This document shows, in pieces, positions 45,463-54,331 of a stretch of 64,000 bases of DNA. The stretch comes from Candidatus Obscuribacter phosphatis (GTDB lineage: Bacteria; Cyanobacteriota; Vampirovibrionia; Obscuribacterales; Obscuribacteraceae), in NCBI GenBank assembly GCA_001899315.1, contig MOYA01000004.1, positions 54,477-118,476 of the forward strand, in the 5' to 3' direction. The stretch's first letter is position 1. Every line of letters begins with the position of its first letter. The notes under the pieces were generated by a model. The model saw only the letters and a program-made list of their open reading frames with translations, had not been told where the DNA came from and did not search any database. A program made the position numbers and the translations under genes.

Positions 45463-46728
45463 TTAGTTTTCCGAATCTGGGCCTGACTTTCCTTCACCGT
45501 CGGCCTTCACCCCCCGCAGAAGCGGCATGAGCAAGAAGCAAGCCAAGGTGAAGAGCCCGCTCACGATGATGAGCGGCGACAGGCTGCGGTCGAACCAGTG
45601 CACGAACATCCAGCTGCCGACAATGGCAGAGAGCTGGGCAAAGCCGTTGTAGACCGACATCAAGGCGGCGAAGGTAAAGCCTTCTGCCTTGGGAGGACAA
45701 GCCTTACCGGCCAGGCTGAGCACTGTCAGAGTGGCAATGGCGCCGGCAGCACCGAAGACCAGGCTGAGCCCGATCATGATTGCCCCGACTGCTTCGGAAT
45801 AGTTCACCACCGAGAGGTAGGAGAAGGTACCGATGGCGCCGGCCAAGATGGCGAAGGTGAGCTGGAAGCGCAGAGACTTCTTGGTGAAGTACCAACCGTA
45901 GAGGAAAGTACCGATAACCGAACCAGCCGAGCCAATGGCGCCAAGTGTGCCGATGAACTCTTGCGAGAACTTGAGCTTGTCGACCATGTGGTAGTACATG
46001 GGCGTACCGAAGCTCGGCGAGAAGTTGTAGAAAGCCAGGAAGGCAATCACACCCCAGAGCGTGGGCGATTTGAAGGCATGACCGAGCGAAAACGCGGTCT
46101 TCTTCATTTCACCGACATTCATCTGGGCCTTCTCTTCACGCAAGGCGAACCAAGAAAGCAGTGCCACCGCTGCCGGTGCGCACATGGTGATCAGGGCAGC
46201 CATGTGCAAAGCACTGGTCGGGTCAGTCGAGCCGGCAATCCAGCCGCCAGCCACCGAAGTAGCAATCTGGGCCGTGTAGAACCAGAACCACTGCACGCTC
46301 TGGAACTTGCCCACCATGTTGTACTTCTGACCGTTCTCGACCATGACCGCATCGACGATTACGTCGGAAGCAGCGGTGCCCACGGCAGTGAGCAGCAATG
46401 CCGAGACGATGAGCGAAGCATCGCTCAAGCCGGAGAGCCAGAGAAAGGCGCCGGCCGACATGGTGTTCAAGGCCAGGAGCCAAGTCTTGCGACGATAGCC
46501 GAATAGGGGGATGAAGTCGCTCACCAATCCGTAAAGCGGCTTGATCAGCCAGGGAATGGTGAGAACAGCCAGGTAAGCCGTCGACTGCGCTTCATCGAAA
46601 TGCATCACCTCTTTGAGGTAGAAGCTGAGGGGTTGATTGATCAGGCCGCTAGCCTGTGCCAGACCTTGTGCAAAGTAGACAAAGCCGAACAGATAGATCA
46701 GCCTTTTGACGTATGAATCGTCGTTCAT
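45463..46728 (-). CDS. MFS transporter, folate-biopterin (BT1) family-like
   Basis: YLFGFVYFAQGL, LTIPWLIKPLYGLVSDFIPLFGYRRKTWL. 12-TM-like layout. Confidence 0.7.
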   Translation of the reverse strand: MNDDSYVKRLIYLFGFVYFAQGLAQASGLINQPLSFYLKEVMHFDEAQSTAYLAVLTIPWLIKPLYGLVSDFIPLFGYRRKTWLLALNTMSAGAFLWLSGLSDASLIVSALLLTAVGTAASDVIVDAVMVENGQKYNMVGKFQSVQWFWFYTAQIATSVAGGWIAGSTDPTSALHMAALITMCAPAAVALLSWFALREEKAQMNVGEMKKTAFSLGHAFKSPTLWGVIAFLAFYNFSPSFGTPMYYHMVDKLKFSQEFIGTLGAIGSAGSVIGTFLYGWYFTKKSLRFQLTFAILAGAIGTFSYLSVVNYSEAVGAIMIGLSLVFGAAGAIATLTVLSLAGKACPPKAEGFTFAALMSVYNGFAQLSAIVGSWMFVHWFDRSLSPLIIVSGLFTLACFLLMPLLRGVKADGEGKSGPDSEN

Positions 46729-46873
46729 ATGCGAACTTTCCGGTCGGTCCAGCCCGGGGGTACCGGGCTTTCCGACTCTCTTTCAATAGTTTCAGATAAG
46801 TGCTCCGAATGAAGGGTTAGGAACGTACGGCTCTTTAGCCGTATGGAAAGTGAGAATTAGCCCGAGCCAAAGC

Positions 46874-47290
46874 TCAGACTTTCACAGCCTTTTTGTTCAC
46901 CAGCTTCGGTCCCTCCACGAGCTTCAAAACCGGGCAGCGACCGGCGGTGCGCTCCATGGCGGTGAGGTCGGCGGCGCTGAGATTACCGCTGGCCTCGATG
47001 AGCTCTTCGATGAGAGGGATCTTCTTGGTGGCGTCATTGGGATCGGCCACCTCGCTGTAGGTGACCTTGACGCTCAGAGTCTGGATGTCCCAGTTACGGC
47101 TCTTTGCCACCATCATCAGTGTCTGCACGGTGCAGCTACCGATTGCGGCGAGCAAAAGCTCTTTGGGAGTCGGACCCAGGGATGTGCCGCCCACCGACTT
47201 ATCCTGGTCGGCAATGACAGTGAAGGCGCCGGCGCTGATGTCCACCTTGTAGGTGTGCCCGGCTGCCAGAGTGCATGTGGCTTGCGTCAT
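46874..47290 (-). CDS. OsmC/Ohr-family peroxiredoxin-like protein
   Basis: GGTSLGPTPKELLLAAIGSCT ... TAGRCPV (two conserved Cys contexts). The start abuts the PPK2 stop. Confidence 0.8.
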   Translation of the reverse strand: MTQATCTLAAGHTYKVDISAGAFTVIADQDKSVGGTSLGPTPKELLLAAIGSCTVQTLMMVAKSRNWDIQTLSVKVTYSEVADPNDATKKIPLIEELIEASGNLSAADLTAMERTAGRCPVLKLVEGPKLVNKKAVKV

Positions 47291-47291
47291 A

Positions 47292-48200
47292 TCAACCCTG
47301 CTCCTTCTTTTCCTTGTTTTTCTTTTCGTCCTTGCCCTTGTCGTCGGACTCAGGACCGAGAGCTTCTTCGAGCTGCTGATTGATGATGCGCAGCACGTTC
47401 ACCCGGCTGTAGCGCTTGTCTTCGCTGGAAACGATGAACCAAGGCGCATAGTCGGTGCCGGTGCGGAAGAACATCTCGTTGGCCGCCCGGGTGTACTTCT
47501 TCCACTTCTTACGCGCTTCGGCGTCGGAAGGAGAGAGCTTCCAGGGCTTGTCGCGAGCGCGGTCTTCGAAACGCTTCTTCTGCTCACCCTTGGTGATGTC
47601 GAGCCAGAGCTTGACCACGACGCCGCCCTGCTGCTCCAGGCTCCAGTCCATGGCGCGCAGACCGGCATAGGTGTGCTGCCACACCGCCGGCGGTTGCAGT
47701 TCATTGACCCGAACCACCAGCACTTCTTCGAACCAGGAGCGGTCGAAGACCCGCACCTGACCATAGGCCGGCATGCGGTCGTCCTTGAAGAAGCGCCAGA
47801 GAGGCGGATGGGCGCGCTCGTCTTCGGTGGGAGCACCGATGGGCACGCTGAGAAAGAGCTTGGCATCGAAGTCGAGGGCGCCGGCAACACGCTGCGTGGC
47901 ACCGCTCTTGCCGGCACCATCACGGCCCTGCAGCACAACCACGAGAAACTTGCGCTTGGCGGCCATACGACGCACGAGCTTGTTGAAACGCTCTTCTTCG
48001 GCGTTCATCTGGCGCTCGTAGTCTTTCTTCTTATCGATCTTGACGGTGTGATCCACCGCCGCCAGATAGTCGGGAATCTCACCCTTGCCCACTTGCTCGT
48101 AGGGAGCAAGTGGGTTTTCGAAAGTGCGGGCGATCTTGATCACCCCGTTCTCGAGCAGCCGGAAAGGCTTGCCGAGAGCTTTGCTGTCTTTGTCGGACAT
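47292..48200 (-). CDS. ppk2: polyphosphate kinase 2 (PPK2)
   Basis: GGGAGG SD. VVVLQGRDGAGKSG (Walker A), FDRSWFEEVLVVRV, KLWLDITKGEQKKRFEDR, PWKLSPSD, APWFIVSSEDKRYSR. Confidence 0.9.
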   Translation of the reverse strand: MSDKDSKALGKPFRLLENGVIKIARTFENPLAPYEQVGKGEIPDYLAAVDHTVKIDKKKDYERQMNAEEERFNKLVRRMAAKRKFLVVVLQGRDGAGKSGATQRVAGALDFDAKLFLSVPIGAPTEDERAHPPLWRFFKDDRMPAYGQVRVFDRSWFEEVLVVRVNELQPPAVWQHTYAGLRAMDWSLEQQGGVVVKLWLDITKGEQKKRFEDRARDKPWKLSPSDAEARKKWKKYTRAANEMFFRTGTDYAPWFIVSSEDKRYSRVNVLRIINQQLEEALGPESDDKGKDEKKNKEKKEQG

Positions 48201-48229
48201 AGGCTTGCCTCCCGGAGGAAGCTACCGCG

Positions 48230-50056
48230 TTAGCGGTAGCTCCGCCCCGTGTAGATGTTGTTGGAATCGAAACTGTCCACCTGGACACGACCGTCATCCA
48301 GGTACTTGAAGGTCTGCTGACCGCTGAAGGCCATATAGGTCCTGTAGTACTGACGCACCATCAGGCGACCTTCCTTGTCGCGCCCTTCCACCACCACGCC
48401 GTTGCAGTCGCGCAGCACGGTCCAGACGGAGACCGCCCAGCGCACTTCGTTGTGGATGTAGTTGAGAGCGAAAGCGGGCGGCTCGGCAATGCGATCGGCA
48501 GGACCACCACACTTGCTGGTCTCCACCGGCTGAGGAGCGACGATCACGGGCTCAGCCGGCTTCTCGACCGGCTTGACCGGCTTCACTGGAACTACCGCCA
48601 CAGGGGCCTTGACCACCGGGCTGGCGCAGCCGCGGCAGCCATCGATGAAGTTGACACCGACCTCGACTTGCGGGTTGACCGTGATGTTCGGCGCCTGCAC
48701 CGTCACCGCGGGCGGATTGACCGTGATATTCGGTGCCTGCACCGTCACCGCCGGCGGATTGACCGTGATGTTCGGCGCCTCGGGCTTGTCACGATTGACG
48801 AGGAAAGCCAGGAAGGCCAGGAAGGCGAGCAGGGCGAAGAAGCCCAGACCCAGTACCGCCATCAGGCCAGACCGATACCAGGGCTGGTGCCGACCGGCAC
48901 TGTTACCCGCCGAATTGCCAGACGAATTGCCGGACGAATTGCCCGGGGGATTGCTGGGAGGCGCCGGAGGAGCCGGGGGAGCCGACGGCGCTGGGGCCTG
49001 AGGCTCCACCTGACCGGGCTTGTTGCGCACCACCATACGGACGTCCACCCGAACTTCCCGCTCCTGTTCGGTGCCCTGAACGGTGGCATCATCGGCACCG
49101 AGACCACGCTGCTTCACCACCATGCTGACCGAGGAGGCGGCCTCCTTGCCGGCGGTGGTGGCAACACCGGTCATCTTCTCGAGGGCGTCTCCGGCGGCCA
49201 TCTGGCTGAAGTCGCGCAGCATGTCGCGATAGCGAGCTTCGGCACGGGCGACGGCCTCGGGGTCGAGGGCAGCGGGCGTCGCAGCCTGGCCCGAACCGGA
49301 CTGAGTGGTGGGCTGCGCATCGCCGGGCCCTGAGGCAGAAGCAGAGGCAGAAGCAGAGCCCCCACCGGAAGCATTGGCTGCGTTGGCAGCCTTGTCACCA
49401 CCTTCCTTGAGCCCAGCCTTGAAGGCAGCACGCTCCTTGGTGGAAGCGAGAGCCGTCTCGACCTGCTTGCGGGTCTCTTCCAGTTCGCCCGAATTGTCGA
49501 TGACGACAAGCGAAAGGGCCGCCTTCTTCTCTTGCGGGAACTGGGCACGGATACGCTTGAGCAGCTCTTCGTCGGAGCGCTTGTCGCGTTCACGCAGACG
49601 GGTCATCTGCACCGCTTCGTTGGCCACGACGGTCCAGACTTCGTCATACTGCGCCTGCGAATTGGTCTCGAAGAGAAGGGGCACGAGCACCGCCACTACG
49701 CCGCTGCCGGAAGCAGCCGCCAGGGAGATGCGCCGGCTCTTCAGTTCGGCAATGGCAGGGTGAAGAATGTCCTCCAGGTCTTTGCGAGCCTGAGGATCGT
49801 TGAATACAACTTGGCCGAGCTTTTCGCGGCTGACCTTGCCGTCGACGATGATGTCGGCGCCGAAGCGTTCGACGATCATGTCGCGCACAGGGCCTTCCCC
49901 GTCACGCAGCTCTGCAGCCAGATGGTCGGTATCGATGACGGCCACGCCCATCGACTCCAGAAGCTTGCCGACGGCAGACTTGCCGGTGCCGATACTGCCG
50001 GTCACACCGATTACATAGGCGGTCTTAGACTCGTTTTCAGTCATTTTGTCAGACAT
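48230..50056 (-). CDS. coaE: dephospho-CoA kinase (CoaE) fused to low-complexity linker, TM helix, repeats and C-terminal domain
   Basis: ORF trimmed to ATG 50056 (AGGAG SD). N-terminus YVIGVTGSIGTGKSAV...IDTD...PLLFE. Then Ala/Ser/Pro-rich tracts, TM helix LMAVLGLGFFALLAFLAFLAFLV, (NITVNPPAVTVQAP)x3, and a C-terminal domain of about 110 aa. Confidence 0.8.
   Translation of the reverse strand: MSDKMTENESKTAYVIGVTGSIGTGKSAVGKLLESMGVAVIDTDHLAAELRDGEGPVRDMIVERFGADIIVDGKVSREKLGQVVFNDPQARKDLEDILHPAIAELKSRRISLAAASGSGVVAVLVPLLFETNSQAQYDEVWTVVANEAVQMTRLRERDKRSDEELLKRIRAQFPQEKKAALSLVVIDNSGELEETRKQVETALASTKERAAFKAGLKEGGDKAANAANASGGGSASASASASGPGDAQPTTQSGSGQAATPAALDPEAVARAEARYRDMLRDFSQMAAGDALEKMTGVATTAGKEAASSVSMVVKQRGLGADDATVQGTEQEREVRVDVRMVVRNKPGQVEPQAPAPSAPPAPPAPPSNPPGNSSGNSSGNSAGNSAGRHQPWYRSGLMAVLGLGFFALLAFLAFLAFLVNRDKPEAPNITVNPPAVTVQAPNITVNPPAVTVQAPNITVNPQVEVGVNFIDGCRGCASPVVKAPVAVVPVKPVKPVEKPAEPVIVAPQPVETSKCGGPADRIAEPPAFALNYIHNEVRWAVSVWTVLRDCNGVVVEGRDKEGRLMVRQYYRTYMAFSGQQTFKYLDDGRVQVDSFDSNNIYTGRSYR
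48675..48779. repeat. 42-bp in-frame tandem repeat, 2.5 copies
   Basis: TTGACCGTGAT(G/A)TTCGG(C/T)GCCTGCACCGTCACCGC(G/C)GGCGGA. Encodes NITVNPPAVTVQAP on the minus strand. Confidence 0.9.
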
Positions 50057-50552
50057 GGTTACTCCTACTTGTTTGAGCATTGAGAGTTGAGAGACAGTTG
50101 ACCCAAGCACAGCCACCCTTCCGAGTTTCGGACAGTTAAGACCCACCTTGACGCTCAGACATGCCAAAGCCACCGACCCACAAGTGAGTCGGCGTCAGCG
50201 GCAGAAAGAGACGGTAGGTCTTAAGAGAAGGTGTGTGAGACTTGGATCACCAGGAAAATATGTAAGAAAGAACTTCTGGACACTACGTATTAAGCGCCCT
50301 TATATACAAGTCATGAGATCAGGTATTAGTAAGCGTTTAGATCTTGTCTGACCAAAAACTGGCAAAAGAAGACAGAAAGACTCATTAGAGCCAAGAAATG
50401 TTTATGACAGGGTGTTAGCGCGGCTGGGCCAGTCTAGCCAAGTACTGGCAAAAAACCGAGCGGACCTACCTCGGTATTGATGTCGATACAGCGACAAAGA
50501 AAAAAGATGGCCAGGACTAGAGCAAAGCAAATCCAGAACCACTGGGCGAAAG

Positions 50553-53228
50553 TTAGTTTCTCTGGGTCAAGCATTTCACGTCCGGATAGTAGTGCTTAAG
50601 TTGAGCTTGAATCACCTTGACATCTTCCAATTTACCACTCTGTCTGGCTCTTTCCAGCTTGGTCGATAGAGCCAGCCAGTTGGACGGATCGATCATGATG
50701 GCCTGGTCGACTATTTGGTCCACCAGCCAACGGCCTAGATCTTCAAGGTTTCTAATCACTGTTACTTTCTGACCTTTGTCGCCTGGCTGCTTACTGTCTT
50801 TGGCATGCTTGCTTTCTTTGGCATCTTTTGTCTGCACCTTCATGGGTTTGCGGCTGCTTTCCAGCCGGGCTAAAAAGTAGCCGGAATAAGCGAGAACTTC
50901 TGGGTCGGTAGGCGCCATTAAGACCGCCTTACTGATTTTTTGCTTGGCAGAATTGAGATAGTCTATGCTCGGATTCTGGCTGGCATACAAAAATCCCCAA
51001 ACGGCAAGCACTCTTGCTTGTATAGACTTGTCGCGTGAACTTTCAGCTAAGTTATAGGCTTTGAGAAGCTGCGCCTCAGCCTCTTCTAAAACCTTTTCAC
51101 GTTCACGCCCTTCGCCATGCCCATCCAGAGGTTTATCAACTAAGCCGATTTTTTCTTTCGCCTTGGGACTGCTTTTTAGATCGCCCTGCTCTGCATTACC
51201 GGCATGATCACCTGAAATATTACTCGCAGCGCCGCTGAGCAGTTGACTGGTGAGAGGTCTAAACAAAAACTCAGGACTAAAGTCACCACCAGCTTTCTGA
51301 CAAAGGGCTTGCGCCAACTCAATACGCACCAGAGCCTCTGCGCCGAAGAGTTCTTTGTGATGCGCAGTATCGGCTAGCTTCTCCAACTCTCTAATTGTAG
51401 GACCGAGATTGCGACTTTTGAGCAATTCCAAACGAAGCGGAGCGAGCTTGTGCTGGTACTCCCAAAACGATTTCTGTGACTTACTTTGGCTTAGAATAAG
51501 CCTTTGATTTCTATAGTCGAAAGTTACTTTGTATCGACTCAAAAGCGGATTGCCGATGATCGCTAAATCTGAAGAAGTAATAATGCCGGTCTGCTGGCTG
51601 CCTTCCTTACCAGGAGCAACACTAAACACCGGTCCATCGATACGCAGATTATCCAATTCCAGATAGTTGAACTTGACTGAACCAGTTTCAACCAACTTGC
51701 CGTCCAAGCCCTTCAGCTGTCCTGTGCGATAGAGCGGATTAGGAATAAGCGACTTGACTCGACTTTCAGAAACATTGTTAAAGGCAGCACCGGTATCAAG
51801 CAAGAAAGAAACCTTTTGCTTACCGTCAAAACTACCTTCCACAGCTAGTCCAGACATGCCCAGACTGGGTTTGGTATTAACTATGATGGCACCATCAGCC
51901 ACCTTGCTTTTGCGAGGATCATCAAAAGTAACCTTGCCGTTCTCATAATCAACTGTGACCAAGAAACGCTTCAAGACATTGGCGCCGATTAAACCAGCCG
52001 GTTTTTCTTTTTGTATTGTTTCAAACCCAGATAGGTCAGCCACAGCGCAAGTAACGTCTTTTAGTTCCATGTCACCCAGGGTGAATGTATTGAACTTGAC
52101 TCCGTCAGCCTTGATAGAACCGGCTCCGGTGGTCATGGCAATACTTTCTTCCGGCTTGGTTGCCGCTTGTGCCAGCCCGGAGAGTTCCTTCATAAAGCGC
52201 TTGTCTAAAATAGACTGGGTAGCACCGGTGTCGAGGATGAACTTAAGTTCGTTTGTGCCGTTAATTTTAGCCCTGACCAAGATTTCATTGCCGACATAAT
52301 CAAATGGAATGGTGACCGGTCCAGCTTGCAGGCGCAAGGGTAGCTTCTCTTCCGGCATGGCAAAATCGGCATCGGTGATTGTCTCGTCGATCTTTAAAGA
52401 GTCGATGCGGGTTTCAGATACCAACTCTTTGCCGCTGAACTCTTTGACGACGAAAGGCTGCATTGTCCCTTCTACTTCGCGATAATCTTCGTAATGGTAG
52501 AGCTTGTCTATCTTTATGCCGCGCTCTAGATCAACACCAGGATAACTGCTGGCTAAGACCAGATAATTCTCCTTGTCTATGTAAAAGCTGGTTGGCACGC
52601 CGTCATTGGCGTAAATCAACAAAGTTTCACAAGGGCGACCGGCGATGACCACCGGCTTACCAAGCTCTAGTGAAGCCTCAGGAATAGATTCGAGCAATAA
52701 GAGTCCATGGTTGATGTCTTCTTCGATGCGCTTGGCGGTGATCGCATCAGCAGGCATAACAGTATCGCCCTGCTTGGTCCAACAAATTTTGCCGTCATAG
52801 ACAGTTGTATGAGGCTGACCAAGCAAATTAATGGTGATCATCTCTTTCTCGCGCTTAACCAAAAGGTCGCAACCGAAAGAGTTAGTCGACTTGGACAAAG
52901 CCGAAGTCTGGACAATTTTGCCGCTGGCTCGACAGGGTTTATCGTTGAATTTCTTATATGCTTCAAAACCGCCCAATTTAGCCAAGACTTTCTCAGCCAG
53001 CTTGACCGCCTCGCTATCACGCCTGGCTTTCAGCTTGACAGCTTCATGCCCTTTGCTGCGACTCTCAGATAGAGCATAGGCAGAAGGCGTATTTGCTAGA
53101 GAAAGAAAGGCAGAAAGGCTAGATATTGGCAAAATCGGCAGAGACAGTGCCAGCGCTGCTAGCGGCGCAACTACCAGAGTTGCTCGTTGTTTACTGACAC
53201 GATGTCTCTTTTGAAAGAAGCTAGGCAC
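50553..53228 (-). CDS. secreted protein with two retropepsin-like aspartic protease domains
   Basis: GTG start with AGGAA upstream; signal peptide. Two D-T-G-A motifs (KFILDTGATQSILD and SFLLDTGAAFNNVS), each followed about 90 aa later by an (I/L)IG(A/N) flap/dimer-type motif. Helical C-terminus. Confidence 0.7.
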   Translation of the reverse strand: MPSFFQKRHRVSKQRATLVVAPLAALALSLPILPISSLSAFLSLANTPSAYALSESRSKGHEAVKLKARRDSEAVKLAEKVLAKLGGFEAYKKFNDKPCRASGKIVQTSALSKSTNSFGCDLLVKREKEMITINLLGQPHTTVYDGKICWTKQGDTVMPADAITAKRIEEDINHGLLLLESIPEASLELGKPVVIAGRPCETLLIYANDGVPTSFYIDKENYLVLASSYPGVDLERGIKIDKLYHYEDYREVEGTMQPFVVKEFSGKELVSETRIDSLKIDETITDADFAMPEEKLPLRLQAGPVTIPFDYVGNEILVRAKINGTNELKFILDTGATQSILDKRFMKELSGLAQAATKPEESIAMTTGAGSIKADGVKFNTFTLGDMELKDVTCAVADLSGFETIQKEKPAGLIGANVLKRFLVTVDYENGKVTFDDPRKSKVADGAIIVNTKPSLGMSGLAVEGSFDGKQKVSFLLDTGAAFNNVSESRVKSLIPNPLYRTGQLKGLDGKLVETGSVKFNYLELDNLRIDGPVFSVAPGKEGSQQTGIITSSDLAIIGNPLLSRYKVTFDYRNQRLILSQSKSQKSFWEYQHKLAPLRLELLKSRNLGPTIRELEKLADTAHHKELFGAEALVRIELAQALCQKAGGDFSPEFLFRPLTSQLLSGAASNISGDHAGNAEQGDLKSSPKAKEKIGLVDKPLDGHGEGREREKVLEEAEAQLLKAYNLAESSRDKSIQARVLAVWGFLYASQNPSIDYLNSAKQKISKAVLMAPTDPEVLAYSGYFLARLESSRKPMKVQTKDAKESKHAKDSKQPGDKGQKVTVIRNLEDLGRWLVDQIVDQAIMIDPSNWLALSTKLERARQSGKLEDVKVIQAQLKHYYPDVKCLTQRN

Positions 53229-53386
53229 GATAAATTCCTGATTAGATGAAAATAGTTATTATGACAAAAGCAGCCAAAAGCTGCATCAGACGCCTGTAAA
53301 ATAACTGCAGTCGTTTTCTCGCTTGACGACCGCCAATCTTGCTCTCACTATCTTGCCCTAATTTTGATCAGAAACAGGACTTGCAG

Positions 53387-54331
53387 ATGACTGAAACACC
53401 CGCCAATTACACAACTGCCGTTTCTATTGCCGAAAAGAAAGTTGTCGTTTTGAGAGACCTCGACAGTCTGTATAACTACAGACTCTCTCAGGCGGCGGCT
53501 TGGGCCCCCATCCAGAATCTGCGCCAAGACCAAATCAGGCTTGGTTTTGTGCCCACCATGGGCGCTCTGCACGAAGGCCATCTGGAACTTGTCAGAAGAG
53601 CCCGCGAAAAATGCCAAAAAGTTATCGTTTCTATTTTTGTCAATCCGTATCAGTTTGCTCCCCACGAAGACTTCAGCAAATATCCACGTACTTTTGAAAG
53701 AGACCTGGAATTACTGCAATCGGTGGGTGCCGACGCGGTTTTCTATCCAGACGAGAAGCTCATCTATCCAAACGGCAAAGAGAAAATCACGGCGGTTATT
53801 CCACCTTCACCTCTCAATGACACCCTGGAAGGAGAGTTTCGCCCGACCTTCTTTAGAGGTGTAGCCACAGTCGTCCTCAAACTTTTCAACCTGGTTCAAC
53901 CTCATATCGCTTTTTTTGGTCAGAAAGACTACCAGCAATGGAAAGTGATCGAAACCATGGTCAAAGATCTCAATTTGCCGGTCGATATAGTGGGAGTGCC
54001 CACCGTGAGAGAGAGCGACGGTCTGGCCATGAGTTCGAGAAATGCCTATCTAGACGAAAAAGCGCGAAAAGAAGCGACAAATCTCTATAAAGCTCTCTGT
54101 ACCACTAGAGAATTGATGGAAGGCGGTAAGAACCCGTCACAAGCAGCTGCGGAGGCAGCCAAACTGCTGCAAGAAAGCCAGGGCTGGCAATTGCAATATC
54201 TAAAGGTCTGCCGTTCAGAAAGCTTAGAAGCCATGCCGGATAAGTACAGCAAACCCTGCGTCATATTGGCTGCAGCAAAGCTGGGCGAAGTTAGGCTAAT
54301 CGATAACTTGCCGATTGCCGATTTTGATTAG
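53387..54331 (+). CDS. panC: pantoate--beta-alanine ligase
   Basis: ORF trimmed to ATG 53387. GFVPTMGALHEGHLELV, SIFVNPYQF, FFGQKDYQQ, MSSRN. Confidence 0.9.
   Translation: MTETPANYTTAVSIAEKKVVVLRDLDSLYNYRLSQAAAWAPIQNLRQDQIRLGFVPTMGALHEGHLELVRRAREKCQKVIVSIFVNPYQFAPHEDFSKYPRTFERDLELLQSVGADAVFYPDEKLIYPNGKEKITAVIPPSPLNDTLEGEFRPTFFRGVATVVLKLFNLVQPHIAFFGQKDYQQWKVIETMVKDLNLPVDIVGVPTVRESDGLAMSSRNAYLDEKARKEATNLYKALCTTRELMEGGKNPSQAAAEAAKLLQESQGWQLQYLKVCRSESLEAMPDKYSKPCVILAAAKLGEVRLIDNLPIADFD

Follow-up and report, generated by a model that had tools for sequence, protein, structure and literature searches.

The gene at positions 50553–53228 of the window (the whole stretch analyzed here, 64,000 nucleotides of contig MOYA01000004.1 from Candidatus Obscuribacter phosphatis, assembly GCA_001899315.1) encodes what is probably, as judged from its sequence, a real and active single-chain aspartic protease with two retropepsin-type domains in tandem; we place it as a lineage-specific member of a catalogued, biochemically unexplored class. 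The explanation that we favor, and that we regard as reasonably probable when taken as a whole, is that the protein is an exported, catalytically active aspartic endopeptidase that forms an intramolecular dyad from Asp333 and Asp478. Retropepsin-like proteases act as homodimers in which each chain supplies one catalytic Asp, and textbooks derive pepsin from the fusion of two copies of a retropepsin-like half. Thousands of bacterial proteins still show a retropepsin-like fusion in their sequences, and the gene described here is a well-conserved example. Established views are unchanged by this result, that is, the architecture is already catalogued and a solved representative exists.

Two homologous retropepsin-type lobes in one chain

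The gene is a single long open reading frame (ORF) of 891 codons with a GTG start on the minus strand, which the initial annotation did not give. That annotation proposed two D-T-G-A domains of the retropepsin type in one chain, and both are found: the four motifs that it quoted are all present (ELKFILDTGATQSILD at residues 327–342, GLIGANVLKRF at 412–422, VSFLLDTGAAFNNVS at 473–487, and AIIGNPLLSRY at 556–566), and both lobes exceed the gathering score of the Asp_protease_2 family (PF13650; 24.3 bits). The whole protein scores 94.6 bits against this family, in two stretches; when it is scanned as four separate pieces, residues 303–443 (lobe 1) and 444–587 (lobe 2) reach 60.0 and 42.4 bits when scored alone. 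The lobes can also be aligned with each other, both as single sequences (BLASTP, E = 5e-7, 24% identity over 134 residues) and as family profiles (hhalign, probability 98.9%, E = 1e-17). Because the two halves are homologous and each passes the Pfam threshold, the pair reflects a real duplication of a retropepsin-type domain within the protein and cannot be dismissed as two DTG triplets that co-occur by chance.

We then asked what is conserved in an alignment of 50 homologs that are 33–94% identical to the query. Loss of the DTG in orthologs had been named as an observation that would speak against the annotation; instead, the Asp, Gly, and Ala of both motifs are invariant. The same is true of the residues that form the second psi-loop element of each lobe (G412, G415, and A416 in lobe 1; G559, N560, and P561 in lobe 2); these elements are G-L-I-G-A-N at 412–417, followed by a helix at 416–419, and I-I-G-N-P at 557–561, followed by a helix at 560–563. 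The Thr/Ser of the fireman's grip is kept in both lobes, down to homologs with 33% identity. In addition, each lobe has its own signature that is held family-wide, DTGATQS...GLIGAN in lobe 1 and DTGAAFNN...I(I/L)GNP in lobe 2.

Pepsin has one flap, and retropepsins have one per subunit. Invariant Gly-rich turns are located ~30–35 residues past each catalytic Asp, that is, at the position of the retropepsin flaps, and they lie at the tips of predicted β-hairpins; we infer that both lobes keep a flap, in the manner of retropepsins.

TIGR02281 (clan_AA_DTGA, NCBIfam) matches lobe 1 only, with a score (40.6 bits) below its cut-off of 57.95. The model for the pepsin family A1, PF00026, gives the whole protein 19.2 bits, below the gathering score of 19.9, and gives the single lobes 16.0 and 13.7 bits; both lobes align with the same C-terminal half of that model (~183–314 of its 315 positions).

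Export signal and accessory domains

The protein had been described as secreted, and its sequence supports this: its N-terminus has the basic n-region, the hydrophobic core, and the A-Y-A of a predicted signal peptide, and similar N-termini are kept in nearly all of the 50 homologs, 47 of which have no later hydrophobic (transmembrane) segment. Because signal-like N-termini recur across the homologs, export is likely to be a property of the family, and the protein would be located in the periplasm or the cell envelope. In the AlphaFold model described below, residues 1–65 have a predicted local distance difference test (pLDDT) score below 50.

An N-terminal region of about 230 residues was said to precede the lobes; the region is present, although its length is ~300 residues, composed of a 52-residue signal, a short linker, and a domain of ~235 residues. 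Neither the N-terminal 302 residues nor the C-terminal 304 residues have a Pfam match even at E ≤ 10, and the N-terminal domain also has no NCBIfam match. The predicted structure of this domain was more informative: Foldseek matches it with 3bk5 ('outer membrane lipoprotein-sorting protein domain'), 3buu ('LolA superfamily protein'), LolA3 (9tp6), DUF1329 (4z48), and RseB, with template modeling (TM) scores by target of 0.52–0.64 and E-values of 1e-8 to 1e-7 for the LolA-type matches. The profile of this LolA-like domain also matches 33 tandem-protease proteins that lack the C-terminal module.

The long C-terminus is helical, as had been described, but is better defined as a TPR-like repeat that is broken by two disordered loops. 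In the model, the region contains helical hairpins only; through this part of the chain the family profile matches a consensus TPR (7obi, E = 3e-4), LapB (E = 0.011), and YrrB. Some homologs carry the Pfam families TPR_2/TPR_19 (PF07719, PF14559) or the JGI name 'aspartyl protease/TPR repeat protein'.

Predicted pairing of the lobes

The AlphaFold2 model that was built with the 50-sequence alignment has a mean pLDDT of 83.2 and a predicted TM score (pTM) of 0.80; pLDDT exceeds 90 through residues 70–340 and around both DTG loops, and the low-confidence parts are limited to the signal peptide and the two loops in the C-terminal region. In a Foldseek search of the PDB, the top match is 9iy9 (E = 3.1e-9, 305 columns over both lobes, 17% identity, root-mean-square deviation (rmsd) 4.4 Å, TM by target 0.51). 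The search also identifies whole plasmepsins, chymosin, tick cathepsin D, cardosin B, and BACE, with 340–370 columns and targets of ~325 residues; the superpositions on plasmepsin, chymosin, and cathepsin D have TM scores by target of 0.53–0.56 with E-values of ~1e-8. The pepsin-like C-terminal domain of Mycobacterium tuberculosis Rv0977 (4ehc) is matched with a TM score of 0.63. A TM score of 0.55 across both lobes of a bilobal target is impossible to obtain from one lobe; thus, the model packs lobe 1 against lobe 2 as in pepsin. An intramolecular, pepsin-like arrangement had been proposed for the protein, and in the model, which superposes on whole pepsins as well as on 9iy9, the two domains are not far apart. 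We consider it highly probable that the predicted fold and lobe pairing, that is, a two-lobed pepsin-like module, are correct.

The likeness to 9iy9 is also detected by sequence when the family profile is used (E = 1.3e-6; the segment FIFDTGAGTS is aligned with the lobe 1 DTGA); phmmer with the single protein against PDB sequences gives only marginal matches to ASPRV1 (E ~0.4), so 9iy9 is reached by the profile search.

Proposed mechanism and alternatives

We propose that the protein is an exported clan AA endopeptidase in which the dyad would be built within one chain, not from two identical chains: lobe 1 would give Asp333, lobe 2 would give Asp478, and the lobes would form a pepsin-shaped pseudo-dimer in which each retains its own Gly-rich flap hairpin. 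An Ala after the DTG goes with a higher pH optimum, as is known from the enzymology of HIV protease and pepsin; both motifs here have this retropepsin form (DTG-Ala), and a near-neutral optimum, which would be suited to the periplasm, may be expected. The LolA-like barrel and the TPR-like repeat would most likely serve in regulation or in the binding of substrates or partners; the analogy is with envelope proteases that are assisted by PDZ or TPR domains. The lobe-specific signatures that are kept across subfamilies are expected if lobe 1 and lobe 2 are obliged to pair with each other. We consider catalysis by the tandem protein likely.

Several points weigh against this proposal. Our literature search (tandem, fused, or pseudo-dimeric bacterial retropepsins; PF13650) found no published study of any tandem member. 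When AlphaFold2 was run with the single sequence, the model had a pLDDT of 35; it was uninformative and was discarded. The two-lobed packing is read from Foldseek superpositions with moderate rmsd values (4.4–7 Å). Finally, no functionally informative neighbor is found in the window or in the corresponding loci of three relatives; the neighbors are housekeeping genes.

One alternative, which is compatible with the proposed mechanism, is that the protein is a zymogen or polyprotein: the LolA-like domain or the TPR-like tail would occlude the cleft, and self-cleavage would free a two-lobed core of ~280 residues. Self-cleavage of a precursor is known in pepsinogen and in retroviral Gag-Pro. The LolA-like domain is located directly N-terminal to lobe 1, as is the prosegment in pepsinogen; the disordered, poorly conserved loops (646–714 and 792–827) and the short linkers would be accessible cut sites; stand-alone two-lobe relatives of 270–340 residues exist; and autoprocessing is documented for APRc (PMC4140852), a single-domain bacterial relative. 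However, the LolA-like domain and the two-lobe core are conserved as a unit in 33 further proteins with other C-terminal modules, and the whole chain is modeled as one compact object (pTM 0.80); this suggests that the domains work together and are not shed. We regard release by self-cleavage as unlikely, although it deserves more weight than the ideas that follow.

An idea that extends the proposed mechanism is that the LolA-like domain and the two lobes form a lipid-guided envelope protease, in which the acyl chains of a lipoprotein, or a different hydrophobic constituent of the envelope, would bind in the cavity of the LolA-like domain and be presented from there to the dyad. This is speculative and improbable; if true, lipid guidance would be novel both as a way for proteases to select substrates and as a role of the LolA fold.

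The protein could instead be a non-catalytic scaffold that uses the pepsin fold for binding, as do the plant xylanase inhibitor TAXI-I and other inactive pepsin-fold binding proteins. Degenerate versions do evolve, since the second lobe lacks D[TS]G in 20 of 229 proteins of the wider superfamily (see below), and the accessory LolA-like and TPR modules are binding domains. The invariance of both Asp, Gly, and Ala residues and the retention of the fireman's-grip Thr/Ser are hard to explain without catalysis, and we judge this alternative quite improbable. Pairing between chains (lobe 1 with lobe 1′ and lobe 2 with lobe 2′, or a domain swap, with two sites per dimer) is very improbable: the characterized single-domain relatives are all homodimers and our prediction was run for a monomer only, but in that monomer the lobes are packed against each other at high confidence, single-chain pepsins and 9iy9 can be superposed on it, a linker of ~10 residues should be enough for intramolecular pairing (judging from tethered HIV protease dimers), and the distinct lobe signatures across subfamilies fit a fixed heterologous interface.

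Relation to known proteases

The best structural match to the exported single-chain protease that we propose, 9iy9, is the crystal structure of a Bacteroides fragilis protein of 420 residues (named 'putative endopeptidase' and 'Exported protein') that was released on 2025-08-06; we found no publication on it in the literature search. Like the protein described here, it comes from a bacterium, is exported, and has two lobes of clan AA type in the core of one chain; however, it is half the size, its N-terminal region is helical instead of a LolA-like barrel, and it is without the C-terminal TPR-like repeat.

A survey of clan AA mentions prokaryotic forms that are single-domain only (PMC2642776). 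Single-domain bacterial retropepsin-like proteases include APRc/RC1339 of Rickettsia (MEROPS clan AA; PDB 5c9b), RimB, and the Rlo proteases of Pseudomonas (PMC4140852, PMC11957791, PMC12239564), and the characterized members are all homodimers (PMC4140852; PMC12239564). These proteases share with the tandem protein the Asp_protease_2 family, a DTGA-type motif, the hydrophobic-hydrophobic-Gly psi-loop motif, and an envelope or secreted location; their activity establishes that the fold is catalytically competent in bacteria. They differ in having one domain per chain and in being active as homodimers, whereas here two diverged copies (24% identical) are fused, which, according to the model, would give an intramolecular, asymmetric dyad.

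With the pepsin family A1 (pepsin, chymosin, plasmepsins, cathepsin D), which has bacterial members in the shewasins (PMC4814920), the protein shares a single chain with two homologous lobes that provide one Asp each. It falls below the PF00026 threshold, so it is not a member by sequence; in addition, both motifs are DTGA instead of DTGS/DTGT, the lobes have ~140 instead of ~165 residues, and two conserved flap-like hairpins are predicted, with no conserved Tyr at either tip, instead of the single flap with Tyr75.

Three proteins from other bacteria (P0085–P0087, 585–625 residues, ~25% identity) were recovered by the full-length query with E-values of 3e-18 to 2e-10; they contain a LolA-like domain, lobe 1 (DTGG), lobe 2 (DTGN/DTGS), and, in the C-terminal position that the TPR-like repeat occupies here, a PDZ domain. 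Amuc_1434 of Akkermansia muciniphila, a protein of ~50 kDa, is reported to degrade hemoglobin and Muc2, to be inhibited by pepstatin A, and to have an optimum near pH 8 (PMC6982040). Compared by description only, it has DTG and hydrophobic-hydrophobic-Gly motifs and a size near that of 9iy9, and it may be of the tandem type.

Distribution of the subfamily and of the tandem architecture

A protein search identifies 86 full-length homologs, the best with 98% and 92% identity; the latter is named 'aspartyl protease family protein [Candidatus Obscuribacterales bacterium]'. The first 83 of the 86 (E-values from 0 to ~1e-117) are proteins of 647–1072 residues that all have the same two Pfam families, and the named entries, annotated as 'aspartyl protease family protein', come from assemblies of Candidatus Obscuribacterales, Melainabacteria, or 'Cyanobacteria bacterium'. 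A search at E ≤ 1e-20 detected the protein in 75 of the 77 Obscuribacteraceae genomes that were sampled; in the sampled order, 27 of 28 genera have it, and two long paralogs are usual. The same search gave no match in 3 sister-family genomes or in a sample of 200 genomes drawn from elsewhere in the phylum. The gene is old, vertically inherited, and nearly universal in the Obscuribacteraceae, and it has its own intergenic region; its retention in 75 of 77 genomes and its conserved synteny indicate purifying selection on a working gene. For this uncultured, non-photosynthetic sister group of the cyanobacteria, the result is a lineage-specific, nearly universal predicted envelope protease, with a set per genome of two long and five or six short paralogs.

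Two irregular forms were observed among the orthologs. In one genome (G216:C1:2940377-2941970), two frames of 268 and 570 residues that abut each other make up the orthologue, as the result of a frameshift or of an error in the assembly. The frame in three genomes of a single genus (G242, G268, and G209) has only 582–599 residues and ends just past lobe 2, without the TPR-like tail.

To describe the spread of the architecture, the tandem module (residues 300–590) was used as the query against 1.84 billion representative proteins. At E ≤ 1e-3 there are 6813 matching clusters, of which 689 remain at E ≤ 1e-10 and 36 at E ≤ 1e-30; among the 150 best matches, the majority cover both lobes in one stretch, in proteins of 270–1200 residues, and stand-alone two-lobe proteins (270–340 residues) are found among the relatives. 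We fetched 229 proteins and classified them with lobe-specific hidden Markov models (HMMs): 115 share the full architecture, and 33 more have the LolA-like domain and the aspartic protease lobes without the C-terminal module. The initial annotation implied that the arrangement is rare; this is not supported, given the 6813 representative clusters, the seven ORFs in this genome, the database name 'aspartyl protease family protein', and the PDB entry. The tandem architecture is neither rare nor unrecorded: it is catalogued and has one solved structure (9iy9).

Most of the two-lobe proteins among the 229 have D[TS]G in both lobes. Half-dead pseudo-dimers also exist, that is, two-lobe proteins in which D[TS]G has been lost in the second lobe only; there are 20 of these, 16 of them without another aspartic protease domain. 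Among the library matches, five proteins (e.g., P0143 and P0228) have two tandem pairs, and so four retropepsin-like domains, in a single chain.

Paralogs and the history of the duplication

The genome of Candidatus Obscuribacter phosphatis (5.49 Mb in 8 contigs) contains 15 matches to PF13650 in eight ORFs, seven of which have a pair. One paralog (844 residues) has the same layout as the protein in the window; five others are short tandem proteins (419–455 residues), and the four that we examined have a signal peptide, an N-terminal TPR region, and two lobes. The eighth ORF (333 residues) has a single detectable Asp_protease_2 domain. When a short paralog was used as the query against the PDB, the output was mostly TPR matches.

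Remote tandem proteins cannot be sorted by asking which lobe HMM gives the higher score; this assignment was uninformative because the HMM for lobe 1 wins for both lobes, and it was replaced by a tree. The maximum-likelihood tree contains 112 lobes from 56 tandem proteins. The first-lobe and second-lobe labels change 7 times on this tree, compared with a mean of 37.7 (minimum 28) in 1000 shuffles of the labels; one clade of 33 tips contains only second lobes (support 0.93), and one clade of 29 tips contains only first lobes (support 0.82). The lobes of the window family, of the family of the 844-residue paralog, and of the PDZ-type proteins each group with their positional counterparts, which points to one old duplication common to these long subfamilies.

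Three of the short paralogs of this genome with TPR and two lobes behave differently, that is, their first and second lobes are sister groups. This suggests a separate duplication or homogenization, although only tentatively, since the domains are short and the deepest split has a support of 0.23. Taken as it stands, the tree suggests that fusion occurred at least twice, even within this genome, and this bears on how easily a homodimer becomes a single-chain asymmetric enzyme. The Asp_protease_2 model, which describes a single domain, gives both lobes far higher scores than PF00026 does; this fits, without proving, a duplication separate from that of pepsin. A speculative and improbable reading is that the pepsin family descends from these old bacterial tandem proteins, which would then be no parallel invention.

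Locus and genome context

The coordinates of the gene, its domains and motifs, and the paralogous ORFs are collected in Table 1.

Table 1. Location of the tandem protease gene, its parts, and its tandem paralogs. Positions are those of the window, except for the link (residues) and the paralogs (contig and position in the genome).
Feature	Position	Strand	Details
Whole gene, exported tandem retropepsin-like protein, 891 aa	50553..53228	minus	GTG start; stop 50553-50555; from ORF list and translation
Predicted Sec signal peptide	53073..53228	minus	residues 1-52; basic n-region KRHRVSKQR, hydrophobic core, A-Y-A at 50-52
LolA-like β-barrel domain (predicted)	52329..53033	minus	residues ~66-300; Foldseek and pLDDT 90-97
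Lobe 1, Asp_protease_2	51909..52322	minus	residues 303-440; PF13650 60.0 bits, PF13975 53.3 bits; DTGATQS and GLIGAN conserved
Lobe 1 catalytic motif D333-T-G-A336	52221..52232	minus	D333, G335, A336 invariant and T334 at least 90% in 50 homologs
Lobe 1 predicted flap-tip hairpin M-T-T-G-A-G	52119..52136	minus	residues 365-370; T366, G368 invariant; turn between strands 363-366 and 371-384
Link between lobes	residues 441-445	minus	~10 unstructured residues from last strand of lobe 1 to first of lobe 2
Lobe 2, Asp_protease_2	51483..51893	minus	residues 446-582; PF13650 42.4 bits; DTGAAFNN and ILGNP conserved
Lobe 2 catalytic motif D478-T-G-A481	51786..51797	minus	D478, G480, A481 invariant; 479 is T or S
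Lobe 2 predicted flap-tip hairpin K-G-L-D-G-K-L	51693..51713	minus	residues 506-512; G507, D509 invariant; L508, G510 at least 90%; strands 501-506 and 512-519
C-terminal TPR-like helical repeat (predicted)	50556..51482	minus	residues 583-891; disordered loops ~646-714 and 792-827
Divergent intergenic region with panC, 110 bp	53229..53338	.	AGGA ~8 nt before GTG; TGTCATAAT extended -10-like element; by-eye reading
Six further tandem-pair ORFs	C2:428706-431465 (two adjacent genes), C3:60178-60891, C1:1246482-1247153, C3:587444-588064, C1:3077412-3078050		

In the window, the gene is located between panC (53339–54331, plus strand), from which it diverges, and a gene for a CoaE fusion protein (48230–50173, minus strand), which is followed by PPK2 (47292–48200, minus strand). 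A consensus promoter scan of 53229–53338 called no promoter; the −10-like element listed in Table 1 was read by eye only. The divergent arrangement with panC is kept in relatives: in three whose proteases are 31–53% identical, the gene is divergent from panC and is followed by a small DUF6941 gene, the CoaE fusion gene, and PPK2, except that the relative with 31% identity has a major facilitator superfamily (MFS) transporter where the others have the CoaE fusion protein. The order that is kept over window positions 45463–54331 is panC, tandem protease, (DUF6941), CoaE fusion, PPK2, (OsmC), and a BT1-type MFS transporter; the locus is a stable housekeeping neighborhood of the Obscuribacteraceae. 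The neighborhood gives no clue to a functional partner: its synteny is conserved, but panC, the CoaE fusion gene, and PPK2 all have housekeeping roles.

In the three relatives, the DUF6941 gene is convergent to the protease gene and lies between it and the next gene. The 380-bp gap at the corresponding place in the window (50174–50552) contains no ORF and no tblastn match to DUF6941; the DUF6941 gene has been lost or moved in this genome. The G+C content, which ranges from 43% to 65% across the whole window, has a sharp step near this gap, from 63% over the C-terminal extension of the CoaE fusion gene (48001–50000) to 47% over the protease gene (50001–54000).

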